A program made the position numbers and the translations under genes. From contig CAVOVB010000010.1 of assembly GCA_963699755.1 (NCBI GenBank), positions 160,001-224,000 on the forward strand: a DNA stretch of 64,000 bases, read 5' to 3'. The stretch's first letter is position 1. Each line of letters starts with the position of its first letter. Below the pieces are notes generated by a model, which saw only the letters and a list, made by a program, of their open reading frames with translations, made no database searches and had not been told where the DNA came from. Source of the DNA: an uncultured delta proteobacterium. GTDB taxonomy: Bacteria > Myxococcota_A > Polyangia > Polyangiales > Houyiibacteriaceae. This document shows positions 2,770-12,584 of the stretch, in pieces.

Positions 2770-5130
2770 ATGGGCTGCGTTTCCGCGGCATGTCTCGTCG
2801 GCACGCGGATTGCTCGACGACCTCTGGTGCTCGTGTGGATCGCAAGCGGATGGCTGACCGGCCTATTCCTGGGCGCGCAATGGCAGCCTCAGTTGGGGCC
2901 GCTCTTAGCCGGTCTGGGCTTCGCCGGGTCGCTCATGGTCGCCGCGCATGGTGGCGAGCTCCGGTCTCACCTCTGGGGCGCGCCACTTGCCATCCTCGCC
3001 GTCTGCTGCGGCCTAGGTGTCGCGCACTCGGCGCCGGCGCCTTGCTCCGTTCGCGGAGAGGCTCGGCTGCGGGCGCGAGTCGAGTCGGTGCGCCACGGTG
3101 TCGCGGATGCCCGTCTGCGATTGAGCGTTCTCGAAGGCCGTTTCCGGGAATCGGGGCAAGCCCTGCCGCCTGGTCTTCAATTGTCCGCCAAGCTCGTGGG
3201 GGGTGCCACGCCCCCGCCCTCGGGCATCATCGAGATCGACGCAGATCTCCGTCCGCGTTCCGAGCTTCGCAACCCCTCGCCGCATCCGCGTCTCTCTCCT
3301 CCTCGCGCCGCTGGCTGCTGGGCTCAGCTCGACGAAGCCACCCCGTTCGAGCTCGTCAACGCCTCCCCCTCCACGGTCGCCATCGCCGACGCCCGTTCTC
3401 GGGTCCGCCTCCACATGGACAATTCATTGCCGCCGGACGTGGCGGGGGTGGCGCGAGCCTTGGTTCTCGGGGACGGCGCGGCGCTCGGCTACGAGCAGCG
3501 GCAAACGATCGCCGCAGTGGGTCTCGCTCACCTGTTCGCCGTCTCCGGCCTTCACGTGGCCCTGCTGAGCGGCACCTTGGTTCGGGTTCTTCACTGGCTG
3601 CTACGTGGGCTCGCGCTTGGTTTCGACGCTCGACGCCTGGCCGCGGCCATCGGTATCCCCCTCACCTTGTTGCACGCGCTTTTCGCGGGGGGCTCCCCAA
3701 GCGCCTGGCGGGCTGCGATCACCGCAGCCCTCACCTGGGCGTTCTTGCTCATCGGCCGACGACCTTCCGCCACCGCCGTCACGGCAGCCGCTGCGCTTGC
3801 GCTTTCTGCCCCCGACCCGGCCATGGCGCTCCGCCCCGCGTTTCTTCTCTCGATCGTTGCCACGTCGTCGATCTTGAGTGCGCCGCAACCTTCCGCTTCC
3901 GAGCGCTGGAGGCGACTTCGCTCGTCCGCGACCATCAGCGCGAGAACGCTCGTCGCCACGACACCGATGGTCTGGTGGTGGTTCGGTGGGGTGCCGCTGA
4001 TCGGCTGGCTCACGAACATCGTGGTTCTCCCGTTCGGAAGCTGGGTCGTCATCCCGCTGGCCCATCTCTTTGCGCTGACGGCCATCGTACCCGCCCTGGC
4101 CCAGACGGCAGGAGCTGCGCTGACCGTGGCTGTCCACGTCCTGCTCTCGATCTGCGACGCCTTCGTCCCACTGACAGTCACCCAACGGCTCCCGCCCCCC
4201 GACCTAGCGCAAGGCCTGGTCATTTTGGCCGCTTCTCTGCTGCTTTTGCACAGCCGAAGCTGGCGCCAGCGCGTCGTGGTAGTGACGGTTGCCGCCCTCC
4301 TCTGGTTTGCCGAAGACCAGCAGCTCATCGCGCGCGAGCAAGCTCGAGGCTCGCTTCGGGTATCCTTTGTCGACGTCGGCCAGGGAGACGCGACGCTCAT
4401 CGATTTCCCCAACGGACAGCTAGCGCTCGTCGACACCGGCCAAGGTGGACCTCATCCGGCCGCGCGTGAGCTTCGCGCCCTCCTCGACGCCCGCCGCCGC
4501 TCACGAATCGATCTGATCGTGATCACCCACGGCCACCCCGATCACTTTGGAGGCCTTCACGACTTGATCGGCGAAATCGAAATCGGGGAAATCTGGCTCA
4601 ACGGGCAGCTTCTCACCGAGGAACGCGACGGCGCCATGGCCCAGCTCCTCTCCTCGGCGATGGCACTTGGGACCAAGCTTCGCTTCGCGCCGGAGCTATG
4701 CGGCACGGCGCAGCGCTTCGGAGATGCGGAGCTCGAAGTCCTTTGGCCCTGTCCTCGCTACGATGCGGCCTTCGGTCTGAACGACAACTCGATGGCGCTG
4801 CGGCTCGCGTACGGACACCGTGCCTTCTTGTTCACTGGCGACCTCGAGCGCGAGCCGGAGCGTCTGCTGGTCACCGCCGGTCGCATCGAGCCTGCCGACG
4901 TGCTCCAGGTCGGTCACCACGGCTCCAAGACATCAAGCTCGCCTCTCTTCGTCGCGGCGGTTCGCCCTGCCCTCGCCGTGATCAGTTGCGGTGCCGGCAA
5001 TCGCTACGGCCACCCAAGCCCCTCGGTGGTTGCGCGATTGCGCGAAGCCGGCGCGGCAGTCTATCGAACCGATCTTCGCGGTGGCGTCATCATCTCCACT
5101 GACGGGAAGCGACTCGACATCCATCGCTAG
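2770..5130 (+). CDS. comEC: DNA uptake channel ComEC/Rec2 (competence domain plus metallo-beta-lactamase domain)
   Basis: GLAHLFAVSGLHV competence motif, many TM segments, DVGQGDA, THGHPDH, FTGDLE, VGHHGSKTSS, GNRYGHP. Start codon uncertain. Confidence 0.93.
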   Translation: MGCVSAACLVGTRIARRPLVLVWIASGWLTGLFLGAQWQPQLGPLLAGLGFAGSLMVAAHGGELRSHLWGAPLAILAVCCGLGVAHSAPAPCSVRGEARLRARVESVRHGVADARLRLSVLEGRFRESGQALPPGLQLSAKLVGGATPPPSGIIEIDADLRPRSELRNPSPHPRLSPPRAAGCWAQLDEATPFELVNASPSTVAIADARSRVRLHMDNSLPPDVAGVARALVLGDGAALGYEQRQTIAAVGLAHLFAVSGLHVALLSGTLVRVLHWLLRGLALGFDARRLAAAIGIPLTLLHALFAGGSPSAWRAAITAALTWAFLLIGRRPSATAVTAAAALALSAPDPAMALRPAFLLSIVATSSILSAPQPSASERWRRLRSSATISARTLVATTPMVWWWFGGVPLIGWLTNIVVLPFGSWVVIPLAHLFALTAIVPALAQTAGAALTVAVHVLLSICDAFVPLTVTQRLPPPDLAQGLVILAASLLLLHSRSWRQRVVVVTVAALLWFAEDQQLIAREQARGSLRVSFVDVGQGDATLIDFPNGQLALVDTGQGGPHPAARELRALLDARRRSRIDLIVITHGHPDHFGGLHDLIGEIEIGEIWLNGQLLTEERDGAMAQLLSSAMALGTKLRFAPELCGTAQRFGDAELEVLWPCPRYDAAFGLNDNSMALRLAYGHRAFLFTGDLEREPERLLVTAGRIEPADVLQVGHHGSKTSSSPLFVAAVRPALAVISCGAGNRYGHPSPSVVARLREAGAAVYRTDLRGGVIISTDGKRLDIHR

Positions 5131-6263
5131 GCGCCGATGGGCTTCTCGAACAGTCGATAGCGCTTGTATATTGTGGACCCCATGCTGCGAATCGCGGCGT
5201 TGATGAGCCGGTTGTCTTCGAGCGTCCAGCCGAGCTCGGCCCAGGCGTAGCCTTGCTTGAGACCGCGGCGCACCAGCTCCGCGATGACAGCCATCGCCAA
5301 GGGCGCGTAGCGCTTCTTCCCACGGAGCTCGGTTCGAATCCCGAGTAGCATCAGGCGCGCCGACTTTGGCCGCCGGATCTTCAAGCGCCAGATCAGCTTT
5401 GCAATGGTGACCGGCCCGAGCTTGCCCTCGAAGTCGTAAATCACCTCGTTGAGGTTTGGCAGGCAGATGCAAATCGCAACCGGCTGGCCGTCGATCTCGG
5501 CGAAGAAGGAGAGCTCCTTGTCGAGAATGAGCTGCAGGTCCGCAGCCATCTTCTTGGCTTCGGAGTCGGTGGCCGGGACGAAACCCCAGTTGTGCTGCCA
5601 GGCGTCGTTGAAGACGTCGAGGATGTCGTGGACCTCCTTTTTGAGCTTGCGTGGGTTGACCGAGCGGAACCGCACCTCGGGAAGGCTGCTGATCGCCTCC
5701 CAAGCCCTCTGGGCGCGCGGCGGCGCGGGCACGACGTGGTGTTTCCAGCCGTAGCAGTCCTTCACCTTCTCGAGCCCCGCCCCTTCGGCCAGCGCGCCCT
5801 GATACGGACGGTGGTGCGGCGACATGATGGTCGGTGGCGAATCAAAACCTTCGACCAGCATCCCGGTCTCCTCGTTGATCGACAGCGAGAAGGGACCGCG
5901 CATCAGGGTCATCCCACGGATCGCAAGCCAGTTCTCGGCGGCAGCGACCAAGGCCGAAGCTACCTCCTGATCATTGATCGTATCGAAGAAACCGAAGAAG
6001 CCGGCGTTGTCTTTGTGAATACGCAGATGCTCGTGATCGATCTGCGCCGAAATCCGACCGACGGCTTTCCCGTCTTTCCATGCGGTGAAGAGCGCAACCT
6101 CCGCATGCTCGAAGAAGGGGTTCTTCTCGGGAGTCAGTCGGTCGGTGATTTCCATGTTGAGCGGCGGCACCCAGGCCGGGTCGTCGCGATACACCTCGAA
6201 GGCAACCCGAATGAATTCCTTCAGGTCCCGGCCGGGCTGATGCCGCTTGATTTCGACGCTCAT
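5127..6263 (-). CDS. GNAT-fold acyltransferase of the YghO / bacterial ceramide synthase-like family
   Basis: Real start inferred at MSVEIKR (ATG 6263, overlapping the fumC stop). Motifs [78 protein letters not shown]. Confidence 0.75.
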
Positions 6264-7651
6264 ACCTTCAGCGGGCCTACCATCTCTTCGGGCCGCACCG
6301 CTTCGTCGAACTGCTCGCCGGTCAGCAAACCAAGCTCGATCGCCGCCTCCCGAAGGGTCGTGTTGCTCTTGTAGGCGTGCTTCGCAATCTTGGCCGCGTT
6401 GTCGTAGCCGACGAGCGGGTTCAAAGCGGTCACCAGCATCAGCGAGCGGCGAAGCTTGTCGTCGATCGTCTCGAGGTTCGGTTCGATGCCAACGGCGCAG
6501 TGGTCGTTGAAGCTTTGTGAGGCATCGCCGAGCAGTCGAATCGATTGAAGCAGGTTGTACGCCATCACCGGCTTGTATACGTTCAGCTCGAAGTTGCCCT
6601 GTGACCCGGCAATCCCGATCGTCACGTCGTTCCCCATCACCTGCGTGCAGACCATCGTCATCGCTTCGCACTGGGTGGGGTTCACCTTACCCGGCATGAT
6701 CGAGCTTCCGGGCTCGTTCTCTGGAATCCGGATCTCGCCGATACCCGATCGCGGGCCCGACGAGAGCCAGCGCACGTCGTTCGCGATCTTCATCAGCGCT
6801 ACCGCGAGCTGCTTGAGCGCGCCACTGGTCCCGACGAACGCGTCGTGTGCCGCGAGCGCAGCGAACTTGTTTGGTGCCGAGACGAAATCCTTCCCGCTGA
6901 GGTCGGCGATCTTCGCGGCAACCCTCTCGGCATATCGTGGGTGCGTGTTGAGGCCGGTTCCCACAGCCGTCCCCCCGAGCGCAAGCTCGCGAAGCGGAGG
7001 CATGGTCGCCTCGATCGCGGCCAATCCGTGGTCGATCTGTGAAACCCAACCGCTGATCTCCTGACCCAGGGTCAATGGTGTCGCATCTTGTAGGTGGGTC
7101 CGGCCGATTTTCACGATCTGTGAGAAAGTCTTGGCCTTGCTGTCGAGGGTGTCGCGAAGCAGGCGAACCTTGGGAATCATCCCCTCGACCGCGATGACTG
7201 CCGCCATGTGCATGGCCGTCGGAAAGGTGTCGTTCGAGGATTGAGAGCGATTGACGTGGTCATTGGGATGCACGGGCGTCTTGCTGCCCAATTCGCCACC
7301 GGCGAGCTCTATCGCCCGGTTCGAGATCACCTCGTTGACGTTCATGTTCGACTGCGTTCCCGATCCGGTCTGCCAGACGACCAGCGGGAAGTGCTCGTCG
7401 AGCTTCCCCTCGATGACCTCGTCGGCCGCACGCACGATCAAGTCGCAGACGTCCTCGTCGAGGTTGTCGAGGTCGCGGTTGGTGAGCGCGGCAGCCTTCT
7501 TGAGGATCCCAAATGCACGAATCACTTCGATCGGCATCCTCTCCGTGCCGATCCGGAAGTTCATGCGCGACCGCATGGTCTGCGCGCCGTAGTATTTGTC
7601 CGCAGGCACCTCGACCGGGCCCATCGAATCGGTTTCTACACGCGTCGTCAT
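6260..7651 (-). CDS. fumC: Class II fumarate hydratase
   Basis: [55 protein letters not shown] signature. SD-like GGAGG upstream of ATG 7651. Confidence 0.97.
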
Positions 7652-7717
7652 CTTGCCTCCGGGCGCTCCCTTACCGCGTCCTTGACCCAATGTCGATTCC
7701 TCGTAGGACCTTGCGAG

Positions 7718-9874
7718 ATGCACCCTGCACGGCCGCAACTACCCTCTCGGCCATGCCCTGCTTGCGGGCAGGCGGTTGACCCGCTGCGCGCCCGCCGCGT
7801 CCTCTGGCTCGAGGACGGCGCCAGATTCCTCTGCGACGCTGAATGCCATCTTCGTTTTGAGCTCGGTGATCGCGCGTTCGACGCCCGCTCGAGTCAGCCT
7901 TCGGAGCGGCCGCGCGTCGAGCGACATTCCATTCCAGAGCTGGTTCGAGAAGCCACGCTTCCCCGCAAGGACCCTACCCCAACGGAGGGCGACGGAGCCC
8001 GTGCCCAACCATACGACCCGGTCATCGCAACCGGCCTCGCCTGCCTCGCGCTCGCCCTGCTCTTGCTCACGCCAGGCCGCGAGCTCGGATGGCTCGCTGC
8101 CTTCCTCGTCCTTCTCTGCGCGGGCGTGAATGCTGGCATCCCACTCACCACGCTGCGTGCGAGTCGATCGCTCAGAGTCGTAGCCCCACTGGGGCTCGTA
8201 TTCGCATCCGTCGCCGCAGTCATGAGCGTCGACGCGGAAACTCAGCGCTGGTCGCTCGCGGGGGCGGCGGTCGCAGCGATCGCGGTCTCGGTCCGCAACT
8301 GGCTCCACGCTTCATTGTCTTTCTCGCTGGAGAACGCCTCGGAGTCGCTTCGCGAAACCCTGCCGCTCCACGCGCGTGTCCCGACCGACGACTCTTCGGC
8401 CTACGAAGAGGTAGCAGCCGACAGCTTGCGTCAAGGAGACCTCGCCGTCGTCCTCGAGGGCGAGTGCGCGGCTGCCGATGGCGTCGTCGAACGAGGCTCG
8501 GGCTCGGCTTTGCGCTACCCTAAAGCGGCGCACTCGAGGCGGTACGCCGAAGGTGATTTCATGCTCGCCGGGACGCGTGTGCTTGAGGGCGCCGTAACGG
8601 TTCGGGTTCGACGGACCGGCCAGGAGCGAGGGATGCTTCGCACCGTCGAGCTTGGGAGAGGCACCCAGCAGGACATGGCTGCCGCGTCTCGACTACGCTT
8701 CGCGCTCACACACTGGAGTTGGCTCCTTTTGGCGCCAGCGAGCGTTGCGGCCCTGCTTTGGGCGGGACCGGCCGGGGCGGCGACCTTTTTGCTCGGGGTC
8801 CCCGTGCTCGCCTTGCTGGCCTCACTCGACGCACCCTTGGACGCTGGCGCGCTCGCTTCGGCACGGCGAGGCATGTTCTTTGGCAGCGCGCGCACCCTCC
8901 GTGACGCAGGCCGCGTGAGCACGACCGCAATCTTGCTCAGAGGTTCTCTGACCGCGGGTGAGCCGGTCGTTCGGCAGGCGCATCCGCTCGGGCATACCAA
9001 CCTCGATAGGGTCCTCGCCCTCGCAGCCGCGGCCGAACAGGCGGCCGAGGACCATCCAATCGCTCGGGCGATCCAGCGCTTTGCCGAGGAACGCGGCCGC
9101 GCTTCGGCCTCGGTTCGCAAGGCGCGCGTCCGGGCCGGTCTCGGTGTCACCGCCGTCACCTCGCACGGCGTCCCAGTCGTCGTCGGTCGACGACAGCTAC
9201 TCCTCGACGAAGGCGTCAGCGTGGCCACGGCGGACAGCGACGCGGCTCACATCGAGAGCGAAGGTTTGACACCCATCTTCATCGCGGTCGACGGCCGACT
9301 CGAAGCGTTGCTTGCGGTGCTCGACCCTACCCACGTCGGCGCGCGGGACGCAGTGCAACGCATCGTCGACCTGCCCTGTGAGGTGGTTGTCCTCTCCGGG
9401 GATGACCGGCGCACGGTCGAACGCATCGCAGCCAATCTAGGCGCCCCGCGCGTCAAGGCTCCGCTGCTGCCGATAGAGCGTGTCGCCGAGGTGCGCGCAC
9501 TCGCTGAAACCGGCGGGGTCACGGCGGCAGTCGGCCGAGGCGGCGTGGACGACGCGGTGATGGCCGCTGCGGATGTTCCGATCTCGCTTCGCCTCGTCGG
9601 CTCGGCATTGGAAGACAGGGGCGTGGTCATCGCCAGCCAGGATGTTCGTGACGCCGCCGGCGCGCTCTGGATCGCCCGGGCCGCACGACGGGCGACCTGG
9701 CGCAGCATTGGCACCTCGGTCCTGGCGACCCTACTCGTCGTTCTCGGCGTGGCTTTCGAGTGGATGACTCCGGTCATGGCAGCCCTCTGCGCAGTCATGA
9801 CCGAGGTCTGGACCCTTCGGGCTGGCTCCCGCCTGCTTCGCCGTGTAGATCTTCGTGTGCCGATGCAGCAATAG
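7718..9874 (+). CDS. Degenerate (probably catalytically inactive) P1B-type heavy-metal ATPase homolog with an N-terminal Cys cluster
   Basis: Colinear with the CopA/ZntA architecture (A-domain GD...[28 protein letters not shown]), but the DKTGT position reads LLRGS, CPC reads GVP, TGES is absent and GDGxND reads GRGGVDD. N-terminus CPACG...FLCDAEC. Confidence 0.8.
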
Positions 9875-9887
9875 TGGAGAACAAAGG

Positions 9888-11279
9888 ATGAGTGACAAGG
9901 CATGGGGCGGCCGGTTCCAGAAGGAGCTGGATGCGATCGCAGCGAGCTTCAGCGCAAGCGTGGATGTCGACGGCCGTCTGTGGGCACAGGACATCGACGG
10001 ATCGATCGCACACGTGCGCATGCTTGCCGACCAGAACATCCTCTCCATCAAGGACGCTGCGCAAATCGTCACAGGCCTCGAAGAGATCCGCGCATCCATT
10101 GCGCGGGGCGAGTTCGACTGGGACGAAAGCAAAGAAGACGTTCACATGAACATCGAGGCTGCCCTGACGAGCGCAATCGGCGAGGCCGGCGGCCGCCTCC
10201 ACACCGGGCGAAGCCGCAACGACCAGGTCGCGACCGACATGCGGCTTTGGACGCGACAGGCCTGCGCGTCCACGGTGGCGGATATCGATGCCCTGCTCGA
10301 GGTCCTGGTCGACAAGGCCGATGGGCACCTCGACTTCCTGATGCCTGGGTACACGCACTTGCAGCGGGCTCAGCCGATTCGCCTAGCGCACCATCTGATG
10401 GCCTGGGCCGAGATGCTCGACCGCGACCGAGGCCGACTCGTCGATGCAGCGAAGCGCATGAACGAGTGTCCGCTCGGCAGCGCAGCTTTGGCCGGTACGA
10501 CGTTCCCTATCGACCGCGAAGCCACCGCCAAGGCGCTGGGCTTCGATCAGGCCATGCGCAACTCGCTCGATGCGGTCAGCAGCAGGGATTTCCTCCTCGA
10601 GGCAGTGAGCGCGCTAGCGATCTGCGCCGTGCACCTCTCGCGGATAGCCGAGGAGCTGGTGCTCTGGTCGAGTCAGGAATTCGCCTTCATGCAGATGAGC
10701 GACGCCTTCACGACGGGCTCGTCGATCATGCCGCAGAAGAAGAACCCCGACATGCCCGAGCTGGTCCGTGGCAAGACGGGACGTGTCGTCGGCTCGCTGG
10801 TGAACCTCTTGGTCATCCTCAAGGGCCTTCCGCTCAGCTACAACCGCGACCTCCAAGAAGACAAGGCGCCGGTCTTCGAAGCCTTCGATACGGTACGCGA
10901 GTGCCTAGCGGTGCTGAGCGGCGCGATTGGCTCGGCGACCTTCGACAAGGAGCGGATGGAGGCCTCACTTCGGTCCGGCTTTCTAGACGCCACCGAGGTC
11001 GCGGACTGGCTTGCGTCGCGGGGAGTGCCATTTCGGGATGCCCACCATGTCGCGGGTAAGCTGGTCCATCGGGCCGTGCAGGAGGGCAAGACGCTCTCTG
11101 AGCTTCCCCTCCAGGTCTACCAAGACGAGCACGAAGCCTTCGACGACACGATCTTTGGAGCGTTGGACATGGAAACTGCAGTCGAGCGCCGCGATGTCGT
11201 GGGTGGGCCGGCCCGGGGCAGGGTCGCGGCCGCGATCGCCGAGCTACGGGGTCGACTCCAGGCGCGCCGGGACGCATAG
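9888..11279 (+). CDS. argH: Argininosuccinate lyase
   Basis: WGGRF, EDVHMNIE, LHTGRSRNDQ, MPGYTHLQRAQP, TGSSIMPQKKNPD. Confidence 0.97.
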   Translation: MSDKAWGGRFQKELDAIAASFSASVDVDGRLWAQDIDGSIAHVRMLADQNILSIKDAAQIVTGLEEIRASIARGEFDWDESKEDVHMNIEAALTSAIGEAGGRLHTGRSRNDQVATDMRLWTRQACASTVADIDALLEVLVDKADGHLDFLMPGYTHLQRAQPIRLAHHLMAWAEMLDRDRGRLVDAAKRMNECPLGSAALAGTTFPIDREATAKALGFDQAMRNSLDAVSSRDFLLEAVSALAICAVHLSRIAEELVLWSSQEFAFMQMSDAFTTGSSIMPQKKNPDMPELVRGKTGRVVGSLVNLLVILKGLPLSYNRDLQEDKAPVFEAFDTVRECLAVLSGAIGSATFDKERMEASLRSGFLDATEVADWLASRGVPFRDAHHVAGKLVHRAVQEGKTLSELPLQVYQDEHEAFDDTIFGALDMETAVERRDVVGGPARGRVAAAIAELRGRLQARRDA

Positions 11280-11288
11280 AGGGCCGCG

Positions 11289-12584
11289 ATGTCCAACGTG
11301 CACATTCCCGAGTCGCCCTGGTTCTCGTACCGAGATGGCGCGCTCGCCTGCGAAGGCGTCGCACTCGAGTCGATTGCCAACGAGTTCGACACGCCCGCGT
11401 TCGTGTATTCCGGTGCGGCGATCGACGAGGCGTATCGTTCGATCGACGAGGCGCTGGCCTTCGCTCCGCACCTGATCGCCTACGCCGTGAAGGCCAATGG
11501 CAACCTGTCCGTCCTCGCGCGCCTCGCCTCGCAGGGCTGCGGCGCAGACATCGTGTCGGCGGGCGAGATGCAGCGCGCGCTCAAGGCCGGCTTCCCGCCC
11601 GAACGGATCATCTACAGCGGCGTCGGAAAGCGGCGCGAGGAAATCGTGGCCGCCGCCAAGGCCGGCATTCGCGCGCTGCACGTCGAAAACATCCAGGAGC
11701 TCGATGTCGTCGAAAGCGTCGCTAAGGAGCTCGGTCGTACGCTGGCCATCGGCTTGCGGGTCAACCCCGATGTCGACCCGAAAACCCATCCCTACATCGC
11801 CACCGGCCTCCGCGAATCGAAGTTCGGCCTCGCGATCCCCGTGGCCGAGTCGATCGTTCCTCGCGTGGTCCGTAGCTCGCAGCTCGTCCTCGAAGCGGTG
11901 GCCTGTCACATCGGCTCCCAACTTTCGTCTCCACGCCCTCTCCGTGAAGCGATCGAGATTCTCGGCAACTTCGCCCGCCATTGCATCGATCAGGGGGCTC
12001 GCCTGCGCGCGATCGACGTCGGCGGCGGATGGCCGATGCACTACGGGCAGGAGCTCGACCCGTACCCGCCCACTGCTGTCTTTGGCCATGCGATTCGCGA
12101 AGGCTTGGAAGCATCCGGGATGCTGCGCCCGGATATCGAAGTCATCACCGAACCGGGACGCGCGCTCGTGGGGGACGCAGGCGTGCTCCTGACCCGTGTT
12201 CTGTACACGAAGATGCAAGGAGATCGCCGCTTCGTAATCGTCGACGCTGCGATGACCGAGCTCATCCGTCCCGCACTCTATGGCGCCTACCACGCGATCA
12301 TGCCCCTCGAGGAGCCTGACCCGAACGCCGATCTCGTTTCGGTCGACGTCGTTGGGCCCGTCTGCGAGTCGGGCGACTTCGTCGCGAAGGACCGCCCCTT
12401 GCCCGAGGTGAAGCAGGGCGACTTACTTGCCATTCGCGGAGCTGGCGCTTACGGACGGGAGATGCAGAGCATGTACAACGCACGCCCGCTGCCCCCCGAG
12501 GTTCTCGTCGATGGGTCGCGATCACGCCTGGTGCGTCGGCGCAGCGATGCAGAAGCGCTCTGGCAAGGCGAGATCCTCGCATGA
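11289..12584 (+). CDS. lysA: Diaminopimelate decarboxylase
   Basis: YAVKAN (PLP lysine), THPYIATG..SKFG, HIGSQ, EPGR, VGPVCESGD, GAYG. Confidence 0.95.
   Translation: MSNVHIPESPWFSYRDGALACEGVALESIANEFDTPAFVYSGAAIDEAYRSIDEALAFAPHLIAYAVKANGNLSVLARLASQGCGADIVSAGEMQRALKAGFPPERIIYSGVGKRREEIVAAAKAGIRALHVENIQELDVVESVAKELGRTLAIGLRVNPDVDPKTHPYIATGLRESKFGLAIPVAESIVPRVVRSSQLVLEAVACHIGSQLSSPRPLREAIEILGNFARHCIDQGARLRAIDVGGGWPMHYGQELDPYPPTAVFGHAIREGLEASGMLRPDIEVITEPGRALVGDAGVLLTRVLYTKMQGDRRFVIVDAAMTELIRPALYGAYHAIMPLEEPDPNADLVSVDVVGPVCESGDFVAKDRPLPEVKQGDLLAIRGAGAYGREMQSMYNARPLPPEVLVDGSRSRLVRRRSDAEALWQGEILA

Follow-up and report, generated by a model that had tools for sequence, protein, structure and literature searches.

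The 64,000-nt stretch of contig CAVOVB010000010.1 analysed here (the window, to which all positions refer) contains a gene for a protein of 718 residues (P0001, on which residues are numbered) that is a P1B-ATPase by descent but not a pump by its defining features. A pump needs the phosphorylated aspartate, the A-domain and a membrane site, none of which is maintained, and the protein is almost certainly a selected, non-pumping pseudoenzyme. Selection retains the cleft between the N- and P-domains, the basic relining of that cleft, a set of new surface residues and an N-terminal finger, and the most economical reading would therefore be a membrane-anchored, Mg-independent adenine-nucleotide-binding switch or scaffold, with the four-cysteine finger as docking module. 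We put the probability of this reading at about one half. The pseudoenzyme family is conserved and apparently undescribed.

The fold is kept and the catalytic residues are replaced

The open reading frame starts with ATG at 7718, ends with TAG at 9874 and has no internal stops. An earlier note, made from the sequence alone, had described an uninterrupted frame colinear with P1B ATPases, which both the frame and the alignment with CopA bear out. Pfam assigns E1-E2_ATPase and Hydrolase domains, and the NCBIfam heavy-metal P-type models match far under their cut-offs (TIGR01525, 180 bits against a curated 346). CopA structures rank first among solved relatives, the best being Legionella CopA (3rfu, E 7.8e-34). 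The AlphaFold2 model (30-sequence alignment; mean pLDDT 88.8, pTM 0.82) is disordered in the linker 57-96 alone and has the P1B layout of MA, MB and M1-M6 plus A-, P- and N-domains; it folds like CopA. The full model matches the E1 structure of Archaeoglobus fulgidus CopA (7r0g) with a TM score of 0.66, compared to 0.39 for the E2P structures, and its P- and N-domains superimpose on those of the A. fulgidus protein with Z 28.6 and an rmsd of 1.6 Å over 263 residues. The parts of the gene are as follows.

7718-9874, forward: P1B-ATPase pseudoenzyme gene, 718 residues (alignment; CopA-like model)
7754-7846, forward: four-cysteine finger CxxC-VDPLRA-x-F/LCxxxC, residues 13-43, TRASH/YHS/FCS-like (conservation; weak profile matches)
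7886-8005, forward: flexible linker, residues 57-96 (pLDDT below 50; omega 0.22)
8018-8317, forward: membrane helices MA, MB, M1 and M2 (model)
8327-8683, forward: A-domain without TGE, ALRYPKA at 8507-8527 (alignment)
8684-8833, forward: helices M3-M4, CPC changed to VPV with the proline alone retained, GVP at 8795-8803 (alignment)
8933-8947, forward: former DKTGT, now LLRGS, Leu406 at the Asp site and Arg408 at the Thr site (alignment; residue counts of representatives)
8963-9328, forward: N-domain with the nucleotide-binding set E440, H446-P447, G474, G476 and G490 (conservation counts)
9338-9382, forward: newly conserved P-domain stretch R543, Q547, D551, E555 (representatives against intact pumps)
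9395-9403, forward: SGD loop, TGD in pumps, retained (alignment)
9479-9481, forward: Arg588 in place of the catalytic Lys (alignment)
9533-9550, forward: former GDGxND, now GRGGVD, Arg607 at the Mg-binding Asp, Asp611 retained (alignment)
9689-9856, forward: helices M5-M6 without YN and MxxSS, Glu696 in M6 (alignment)

The alignment places LLRGS (residues 406-410) in the DKTGT column, ALRYPKA in that of the TGES loop, Arg588 (PIER) at the P-domain lysine, GRGGVD at GDGxND and V361-P362-V363 at CPC. The phospho-Asp, TGE, CPC, YN, MxxSS, the catalytic Lys and the Mg-binding Asp are all missing; the HP motif and SGD are retained, and the N-terminal cysteines are spaced C13-x2-C16...C39-x3-C43. 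The earlier note had the same LLRGS without Asp at the same coordinates, the same ALRYPKA, PIERV at the lysine, HP and SGD retained, and a YHS/TRASH-like cysteine cluster, and the alignment agrees throughout. It read CPC as GVP, which is right as to the loss of the motif, but the correct alignment is V361-P362-V363 with its proline kept. It also held every catalytic and metal site to be replaced; GDGxND has indeed become GRGGVD, but the final aspartate, Asp611, survives in 140 of 149 family representatives. P1B-7 ATPases combine intact catalytic motifs with no clear membrane metal motif, and the family lacks the DKTGT that this class retains. The phosphorylated aspartate of DKTGT is the defining residue of P-type ATPases in the available text of a review (PMC10654040).

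The pocket has turned basic and the nucleotide site persists

We compared 150 representatives at 50% identity with 40 intact pumps and also surveyed a pooled, redundant set of 424 sequences. At the Asp site, the representatives have Cys (103), Ser (11), Ala (10), Arg (9) or Leu (5) and never Asp or Glu; within the genus of the window, Leu is found in 29 of 30. The 424 sequences include no DKTG, 219 have Cys at this site and one has Asp. That one (L080:4780-6687, reverse strand, genome G038) reads FDTHGT, is the sole member seen with Asp at the phosphorylation site and has no A-domain. An intact DKTG shifted to another position, one of the doubts raised in the earlier note, occurs neither in the protein nor in the 424 homologues, and close as well as distant relatives are without the motif (0/424).

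The threonine of DKT has become Arg408 in 108 of the 150 representatives and His in 16, and the catalytic lysine (40/40 in intact pumps) is Arg588 in 136/149. The Asp of GDG, residue 607, is Arg in 54, His in 50 and Asp in 2 of 149, and the complete GDGxND is found in 0/150. At least two of positions 408, 588 and 607 are basic in 134/150, whereas intact pumps have Thr, Lys and Asp there in 40/40. Mg2+ is bound in P-type ATPases by the phosphorylated Asp, the backbone of the Thr and the Asp of GDG; the pocket has thus turned from acidic to basic.

The N-domain set is retained to different degrees in the 150 representatives (E440 115, H446 89, P447 123, G474 142, G476 146, G490 150), and the five adenine-pocket residues counted in the genus are present in 30/30. 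Equivalents of E440, H446, G474, G476 and G490 line the P1B nucleotide site according to the accessible portion of PMC5089723, and E457 and H462 are among the nucleotide-site residues of CopA in the part available of bioRxiv 10.1101/2024.07.05.602285. The P-domain residues R543, Q547, D551 and E555 are newly conserved (136, 134, 132 and 130 of 150 compared to 7, 3, 7 and 8 of 40 intact pumps). The residues conserved here but not in pumps include R304, R467, S501, A503, E513, R543, Q547, D551, E555 and H578, some of these differences (E513) perhaps being alignment shifts in the pumps.

In the membrane region, none of 207 columns reaches 80% conservation (first helices 0/98), compared to 30 of 120 in the second P-domain segment (P2). 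The metal ligands of CopA, as listed in the accessible part of PMC9433437, are absent; the M4 proline is partly retained in the family, and CPx/SPC, YN and MxxSS are otherwise gone. The Glu column of TGE holds Ala in 66/75 loci and 116/120 proteins, with no Glu among the residues listed, and the entire A-domain is absent from L080, L081 and L082 (three families) and from 4/150 representatives. Unconserved helices and a deletable A-domain make pumping implausible. They also make it very improbable that the helices still pass a solute, passively or gated by nucleotide, without a phosphorylation cycle. All eight helices are present in the model, an acid (Glu/Asp696) is found in M6 of 30/30 genus sequences, and the arginine-gene neighbours described below could hint at an amino acid; however, the same acid is found in about a third of the representatives, where it perhaps pairs with Arg193 (weak covariation), and the domain that would couple nucleotide to transport can be deleted. 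Glu696 as an ion site is weakened by the same count.

The gene is under purifying selection

The ratio of non-synonymous to synonymous substitution rates (dN/dS, omega) is 0.103 over 30 full-length genus sequences, compared to 0.047 for argH (29 sequences) and 0.027 for fumC (28). By region, it is 0.12 for the finger, 0.22 for the linker, 0.15 for the first helices, 0.10 for the A-domain, 0.09 for M3-4, 0.033 for the first P-domain segment (P1), 0.066 for the N-domain, 0.031 for the second (P2) and 0.24 for M5-6, where the value is raised because synonymous sites are constrained by an embedded promoter. Synonymous sites are near saturation, so the values are rough; all lie far below 1. No part of the protein is more constrained than the dead catalytic domain, and purifying selection retains the gene. 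The earlier note's proposal of a selected pseudoenzyme rather than decay is upheld by the omega of 0.10 and by the absence of DKTG, shifted or in place, from the 424 homologues.

The probability that the gene reflects decay or an assembly error, or that overlapping promoters alone keep its frame open, is negligible; omega, the range of the finger profile and the DKTG-less set of 424 refute these readings. Contamination of 9% in genome G000, a likely argH promoter in the last 20 codons, and an omega above that of argH, fumC and CopA (0.078 for the pseudoenzyme gene and 0.054 for CopA in a five-sequence control) would favour such an explanation. However, full-length open frames are found across the order, omega is 0.03-0.07 in domains far from the promoter, and the promoter survives alone where the gene has been deleted.

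Proposed function

We suggest that ATP, ADP or a related adenosine phosphate would sit in the cleft between the N- and P-domains, with R408, R588 and R607 substituting for Mg2+. No aspartyl-phosphate would be formed; the protein would stay E1-like and transport nothing, its eight helices acting as an anchor. The DPLRA finger, together with the newly conserved residues of the surface (R467, S501, A503, R543, Q547, D551, E555 and H578), would carry the output. Nucleotide binding could drive switching or scaffolding for a cytoplasmic partner. A more specific form of this proposal, which we consider less likely than not, is a signalling receptor: three Asp/Thr/Lys-to-Arg swaps would have converted the headpiece of a pump into a membrane-tethered, Mg-free sensor that responds to adenylate charge or to an adenosine second messenger. 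It would be co-expressed with the arginine and lysine genes and signal through the portable DPLRA zinc finger to a conserved myxobacterial partner. If true, this would be the first case of a stand-alone P-type ATPase having become a signalling receptor.

Several observations count against a nucleotide-binding switch or scaffold. The apo structure of the CopA P- and N-domains (2b8e) matches the model equally well (Z 28.2), so the fit is uninformative on nucleotide occupancy. Position 408 is acidic in 14/150 representatives, and 16/150 have just one basic residue among 408, 588 and 607. H446 and E440 are incompletely retained. ATP was not bound by the isolated N-domains of HMA6 and HMA8, which have every residue of the set (PMC5089723, accessible portion); the motif is therefore no guarantee that the pseudoenzyme binds nucleotide. 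The gene has been deleted in at least five genomes of its family that retain argH. Finally, the role of the arginines could be no more than pairing with D562, D611 and D612.

This last point leads to a ligand-free scaffold, in which the arginines plug the old site through salt bridges and lock the headpiece, leaving the finger and the new surface alone to matter. The nearby conserved acids (D562, D611 and D/E612, the last in 113/149 representatives), the partial erosion of H446 and the many newly conserved surface positions are consistent with this. We think it unlikely, as the adenine-pocket Glu and three glycines stay at 76-100% (30/30 in the genus), and one would expect plugging to have introduced bulky residues at these positions.

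A rewired enzyme, in which the Asp/Mg chemistry has been exchanged for Arg, often with Cys, to give a slow nucleotide hydrolase or phosphatase, is quite improbable. The frequency of Cys at the nucleophile position speaks for it. Tyrosine phosphatases use arginine-assisted phospho-cysteine chemistry. Some pseudoenzymes are active through migrated residues (PMC10211241, in the part available). However, the genus has Leu at this site with its arginines intact and an omega of 0.03, and Ser, Ala and Arg also occur there.

Of the functions offered in the earlier note, a nucleotide binder or scaffold fits best. A regulator of an active pump is weakened, because the gene is present where no other P1B pump was found and lost where CopA is retained; for a metal sensor, the evidence consists of the finger and of fur as a neighbour in a single family.

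The N-terminal finger

The finger is strongly conserved among the non-gap representatives (C13 111/112, C16 114/116, R24 123/125, C39 125/125, C43 111/127). Its Pfam matches are weak (E up to 0.1: DUF7576 in 15/30, zf-FCS in 2/30, Arc_trans_TRASH in 1/30), and the Atlas leads (0.84-0.87, under 0.9) point to TRASH/YHS/FCS domains and the CcoI N-terminal domain below firm thresholds. The same CxxC-VD(P)(L/V)RA-FCSxxC finger is found in four genomes at the N-terminus of an unrelated protein (sister family f33), which further has a Pro/Ala linker, a single predicted helix and HEAT repeats (HEAT_2 by Pfam in all three copies scanned). Its occurrence on two unrelated membrane proteins suggests that it docks on an outside partner and is likely a portable docking module. 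Covariation between finger and body is dominated by invariant columns and is uninformative.

The f33 copies lie at L162:4085-5656 (reverse), L163:5484-6830 (forward), L164:4045-5604 (reverse) and L165:4150-5472 (reverse); a Fam20C-like kinase gene lies immediately upstream of them and a thioredoxin-like gene close by. Six further loci from several Myxococcota families (L167, L169, L171, L174, L175 and L176) encode ParA/Soj-like ATPases (KGGTGKTT by eye) with two N-terminal FCS-type fingers.

Distribution and descent

The gene is near-core in the order Polyangiales, though cleanly deleted in one subclade. A protein search matches 165 of 201 genomes of the order at E of 1e-40 or below, and the finger profile matches 274 of 301, nearly all in single copy; the latter search includes one row (G712) flagged unpublished, as does the class search (G404). 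Some of the misses proved to be divergent orthologues once fetched (L072, L079-L083). Source names of the homologues include 'Polyangiales bacterium', and named carriers are Sorangium cellulosum So ceGT47, Polyangium fumosum DSM 14668 and Chondromyces apiculatus DSM 436.

Outside the order, ten high-scoring loci of the class search, whose first look used a stricter threshold, were fetched; all have DKTG and GDGxND. The finger profile matches 11 of 252 phylum genomes outside the order, and none of the 13 loci fetched from these is the pseudoenzyme gene. Divergent orthologues score as low as intact pumps (L082, 241 bits), so a very divergent copy beyond the order may escape; in the genomes searched, the gene was not found outside it.

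Among the genomes of the order, argH is retained and the gene gives no match in G003, G017, G021 and G125, which belong to the genus and are 96-98% complete, and in G096. Five other non-matching genomes were checked: in G076 the gene is cut at a contig end; G005, G184 and G085 are also without argH; and G079 has a 128-bit match.

Set against 41 intact P1B sequences, the orthologues fall into a single clade with support of 1.0 in an unrooted FastTree tree, which does not fix the sister group. In the rooted tree, the clade sits among the Cu-type pumps on a long stem (0.90); support for the backbone is weak, and re-rooting may have displaced supports. A copper-type P1B ATPase is accordingly only the likely donor. 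Descent from CcoI/FixI, hinted at by the finger and by midpoint placement, is unsupported by profile scores and by the rooted tree; CcoI/FixI-type pumps score lowest against the family profile (160-168 bits).

Relation to known systems

CopA (A. fulgidus 7r0g and 3a1c-e; Legionella 3rfu) shares with the pseudoenzyme the eight-helix topology, the A-, P- and N-domains, the HP motif, the nucleotide-site Glu and glycines and the TGD-type loop (Z 27-29, 24-33% identity). The pseudoenzyme differs in lacking the equivalent of D424, TGE, CPC, YN, MxxSS, the catalytic Lys and the Mg-binding Asp, with three conserved arginines instead; where CopA has a ferredoxin-fold HMA domain it has the four-cysteine finger, and its A-domain is dispensable. 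CcoI/FixI pumps (CopA2-type, PF12156) have a similar N-terminal CxxC...FCxxxC domain (an Atlas lead only, at 0.87; seen in L098 and L099), but they are intact pumps, have no DPLRA motif and fall outside the family in the rooted tree.

The nearest precedent, as far as the accessible parts of the sources go, is the degenerate flippase module of the alveolate P4-guanylate cyclases. In P4GC-beta of Cryptosporidium, DKTGT and the dephosphorylation motifs are altered within a P-type body, and a non-ATPase supporting role has been proposed for the degenerate P4-ATPase module (PMC13466520), whereas the alpha form needs its Asp (PMC7858053). These proteins are eukaryotic, flippase-derived, fused to a cyclase and degenerate in some lineages only; the pseudoenzyme is bacterial, stand-alone and P1B-derived, and its replacements are conserved across an order. 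Pseudokinases have likewise lost catalytic and metal-binding aspartates while keeping fold and a switch or scaffold role (PMC10211241, in the part available), but their fold is a different one.

The word 'ATPase' does not occur in the main text of that pseudoenzyme review as available, and the accessible parts of the P-type (PMC10654040), pseudoenzyme (PMC10211241) and copper (PMC7558416) reviews contain no Asp-less bacterial P1B family. A full-text literature search, beyond whose reach lie supplements and most subscription papers, found none described. Database names of members ('Cu+-exporting ATPase', 'P-type Cu+ transporter', 'cation-translocating P-type ATPase', 'P-type Zn(2+) transporter family') are pump names and constitute a systematic annotation error that would inflate counts of metal resistance in Polyangiales. 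A bacterial order keeps, near-core, an Asp-less copy of a P-type ATPase, a class that the Asp is held to define. The family is a natural test of the P1B headpiece without phosphorylation and of the change from pump to sensor, for which the cultured carriers, natural deletions and A-domain-less variants offer ready comparisons.

Genomic context and promoters

The neighbouring features of the window are as follows.

6260-7651, reverse: fumC, divergent neighbour in the genus (window annotation)
7668-7696, reverse: likely overlapping divergent fumC promoter, TCGACA, 17 nt, TAAGGG (retained in L257 and L258, both deletion genomes; missing from L020, which has no adjacent fumC)
7682-7709, forward: likely own promoter of the gene, TTGACC, 16 nt, TAGGAC, ending 8 nt before the ATG (inferred from conservation and deletions)
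9822-9850, forward: likely promoter of argH, lying within the gene at its 3' end, CTGGCT, 17 nt, GTAGAT (inferred; genus-specific)
9888-11279, forward: argH, 13 nt past the stop of the gene (window annotation)
11289-12584, forward: lysA, after argH and followed by a FabH-like gene (window annotation)

The place upstream of argH, which the earlier note had proposed to check, is conserved in 12 families: argH is the next gene in 34 of 36 f1 loci and likewise follows directly in 11 further families. In f17 and in the Polyangiaceae-type loci, argD or argF lies directly upstream (11/15 and 67/80) and fur downstream (7/15 and 56/80). An L,D-transpeptidase gene is upstream in seven loci of six families. 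No arg neighbour was seen in f16 (0/5) or in f10, f12 and f21 (0/1 each), and in sister orders different genes, for example those of Fic proteins, lie before argH. The two neighbour patterns fit one ancestral argD-argF-gene-argH-lysA cluster that split on either side of the gene. A functional tie to arginine synthesis is unsupported, as argH outlives loss of the gene and some families have no arg neighbour; the link to argH likely reflects ancestral gene order together with the probable argH promoter inside the gene. That the gene replaced argG was rejected, since G000 carries argG on another contig.

The likely promoters of fumC and of the gene lie back to back within the 66 nt between them (7652-7717), and natural deletions and rearrangements separate their elements. 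TTGACC and CGTA are present, by eye, in all 34 genus upstream regions with sequence, and the likely promoter of the gene would give a leaderless or near-leaderless mRNA. Among the final codons of the gene, CGT is found in 34/34 and GTA in 33/34, GTA accounting for 116 of 2262 Val codons in the gene body. In the deletion genomes G003 and G017, the gap between fumC and argH is 138 and 129 nt and the TTGAC and CGTA elements are gone, while the 3' element is retained in all four genus deletion genomes; from this pattern, the upstream element probably belongs to the gene and the internal element to argH. A strict sigma-70 consensus scan gave 0 sites and found neither promoter. A fur promoter after the stop of the gene, seen by eye, is unsupported (0/76). 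One RNA run matched 0.10 of the gene's words, with contigs mostly less than 90% alike and most of the gene uncovered, and is uninformative on expression.

The context also bears on a role in metal homeostasis, in which the finger would sense Zn or Cu and the protein would tune an active P1B pump or Fur. Its ancestry among metal pumps, the resemblance of the finger to TRASH/YHS and to the CcoI metal-binding domain (a lead only) and the fur gene directly downstream are in its favour. We nevertheless consider it improbable. Four carriers have no other P1B match (G170, 98% complete; G038, 96%; G048, 95%; G156, 97%), the four genus deletion genomes retain an intact CopA, and the fur neighbour is confined to one family. 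Of ten carriers chosen for few matches, four are without another P1B, four have a P1B below the cut-off and two have full pumps; the remaining pumps of G048 and G156 are P2-type. The flanking regions of the 155 tallied orthologue loci contain no intact pump, and the two DKTG strings in them lie in non-coding frames. Since the gene persists in genomes where no other P1B pump was found, never lies beside such a pump and has been removed cleanly from one subclade, it is neither essential nor primarily a regulator of pumps.

In Sorangium (L253), Polyangium (L224) and Chondromyces (L255), the argD-gene-fur block is back to back with grpE-dnaK, and in the Sorangium record it is found less than about 12 kb from position 1, close to hrcA. 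At L150 (G000:C5:3000-20000), one strand carries argB-argD-argF, then a DnaJ/TPR gene, a dnaK-like gene, an unknown 200-residue gene, argG and a CNNM/CBS gene. G000 has two 96%-identical copA copies (C7:135355-137517 and C1:1862138-1864300), as well as two similar CcoI-like pumps and two similar P2 pumps, and with its contamination of 9% this may be a binning duplicate. Further upstream in the window are an ordinary ComEC/Rec2-type competence gene (2770-5130, forward) and an equally ordinary GNAT-like gene (5127-6256, reverse).

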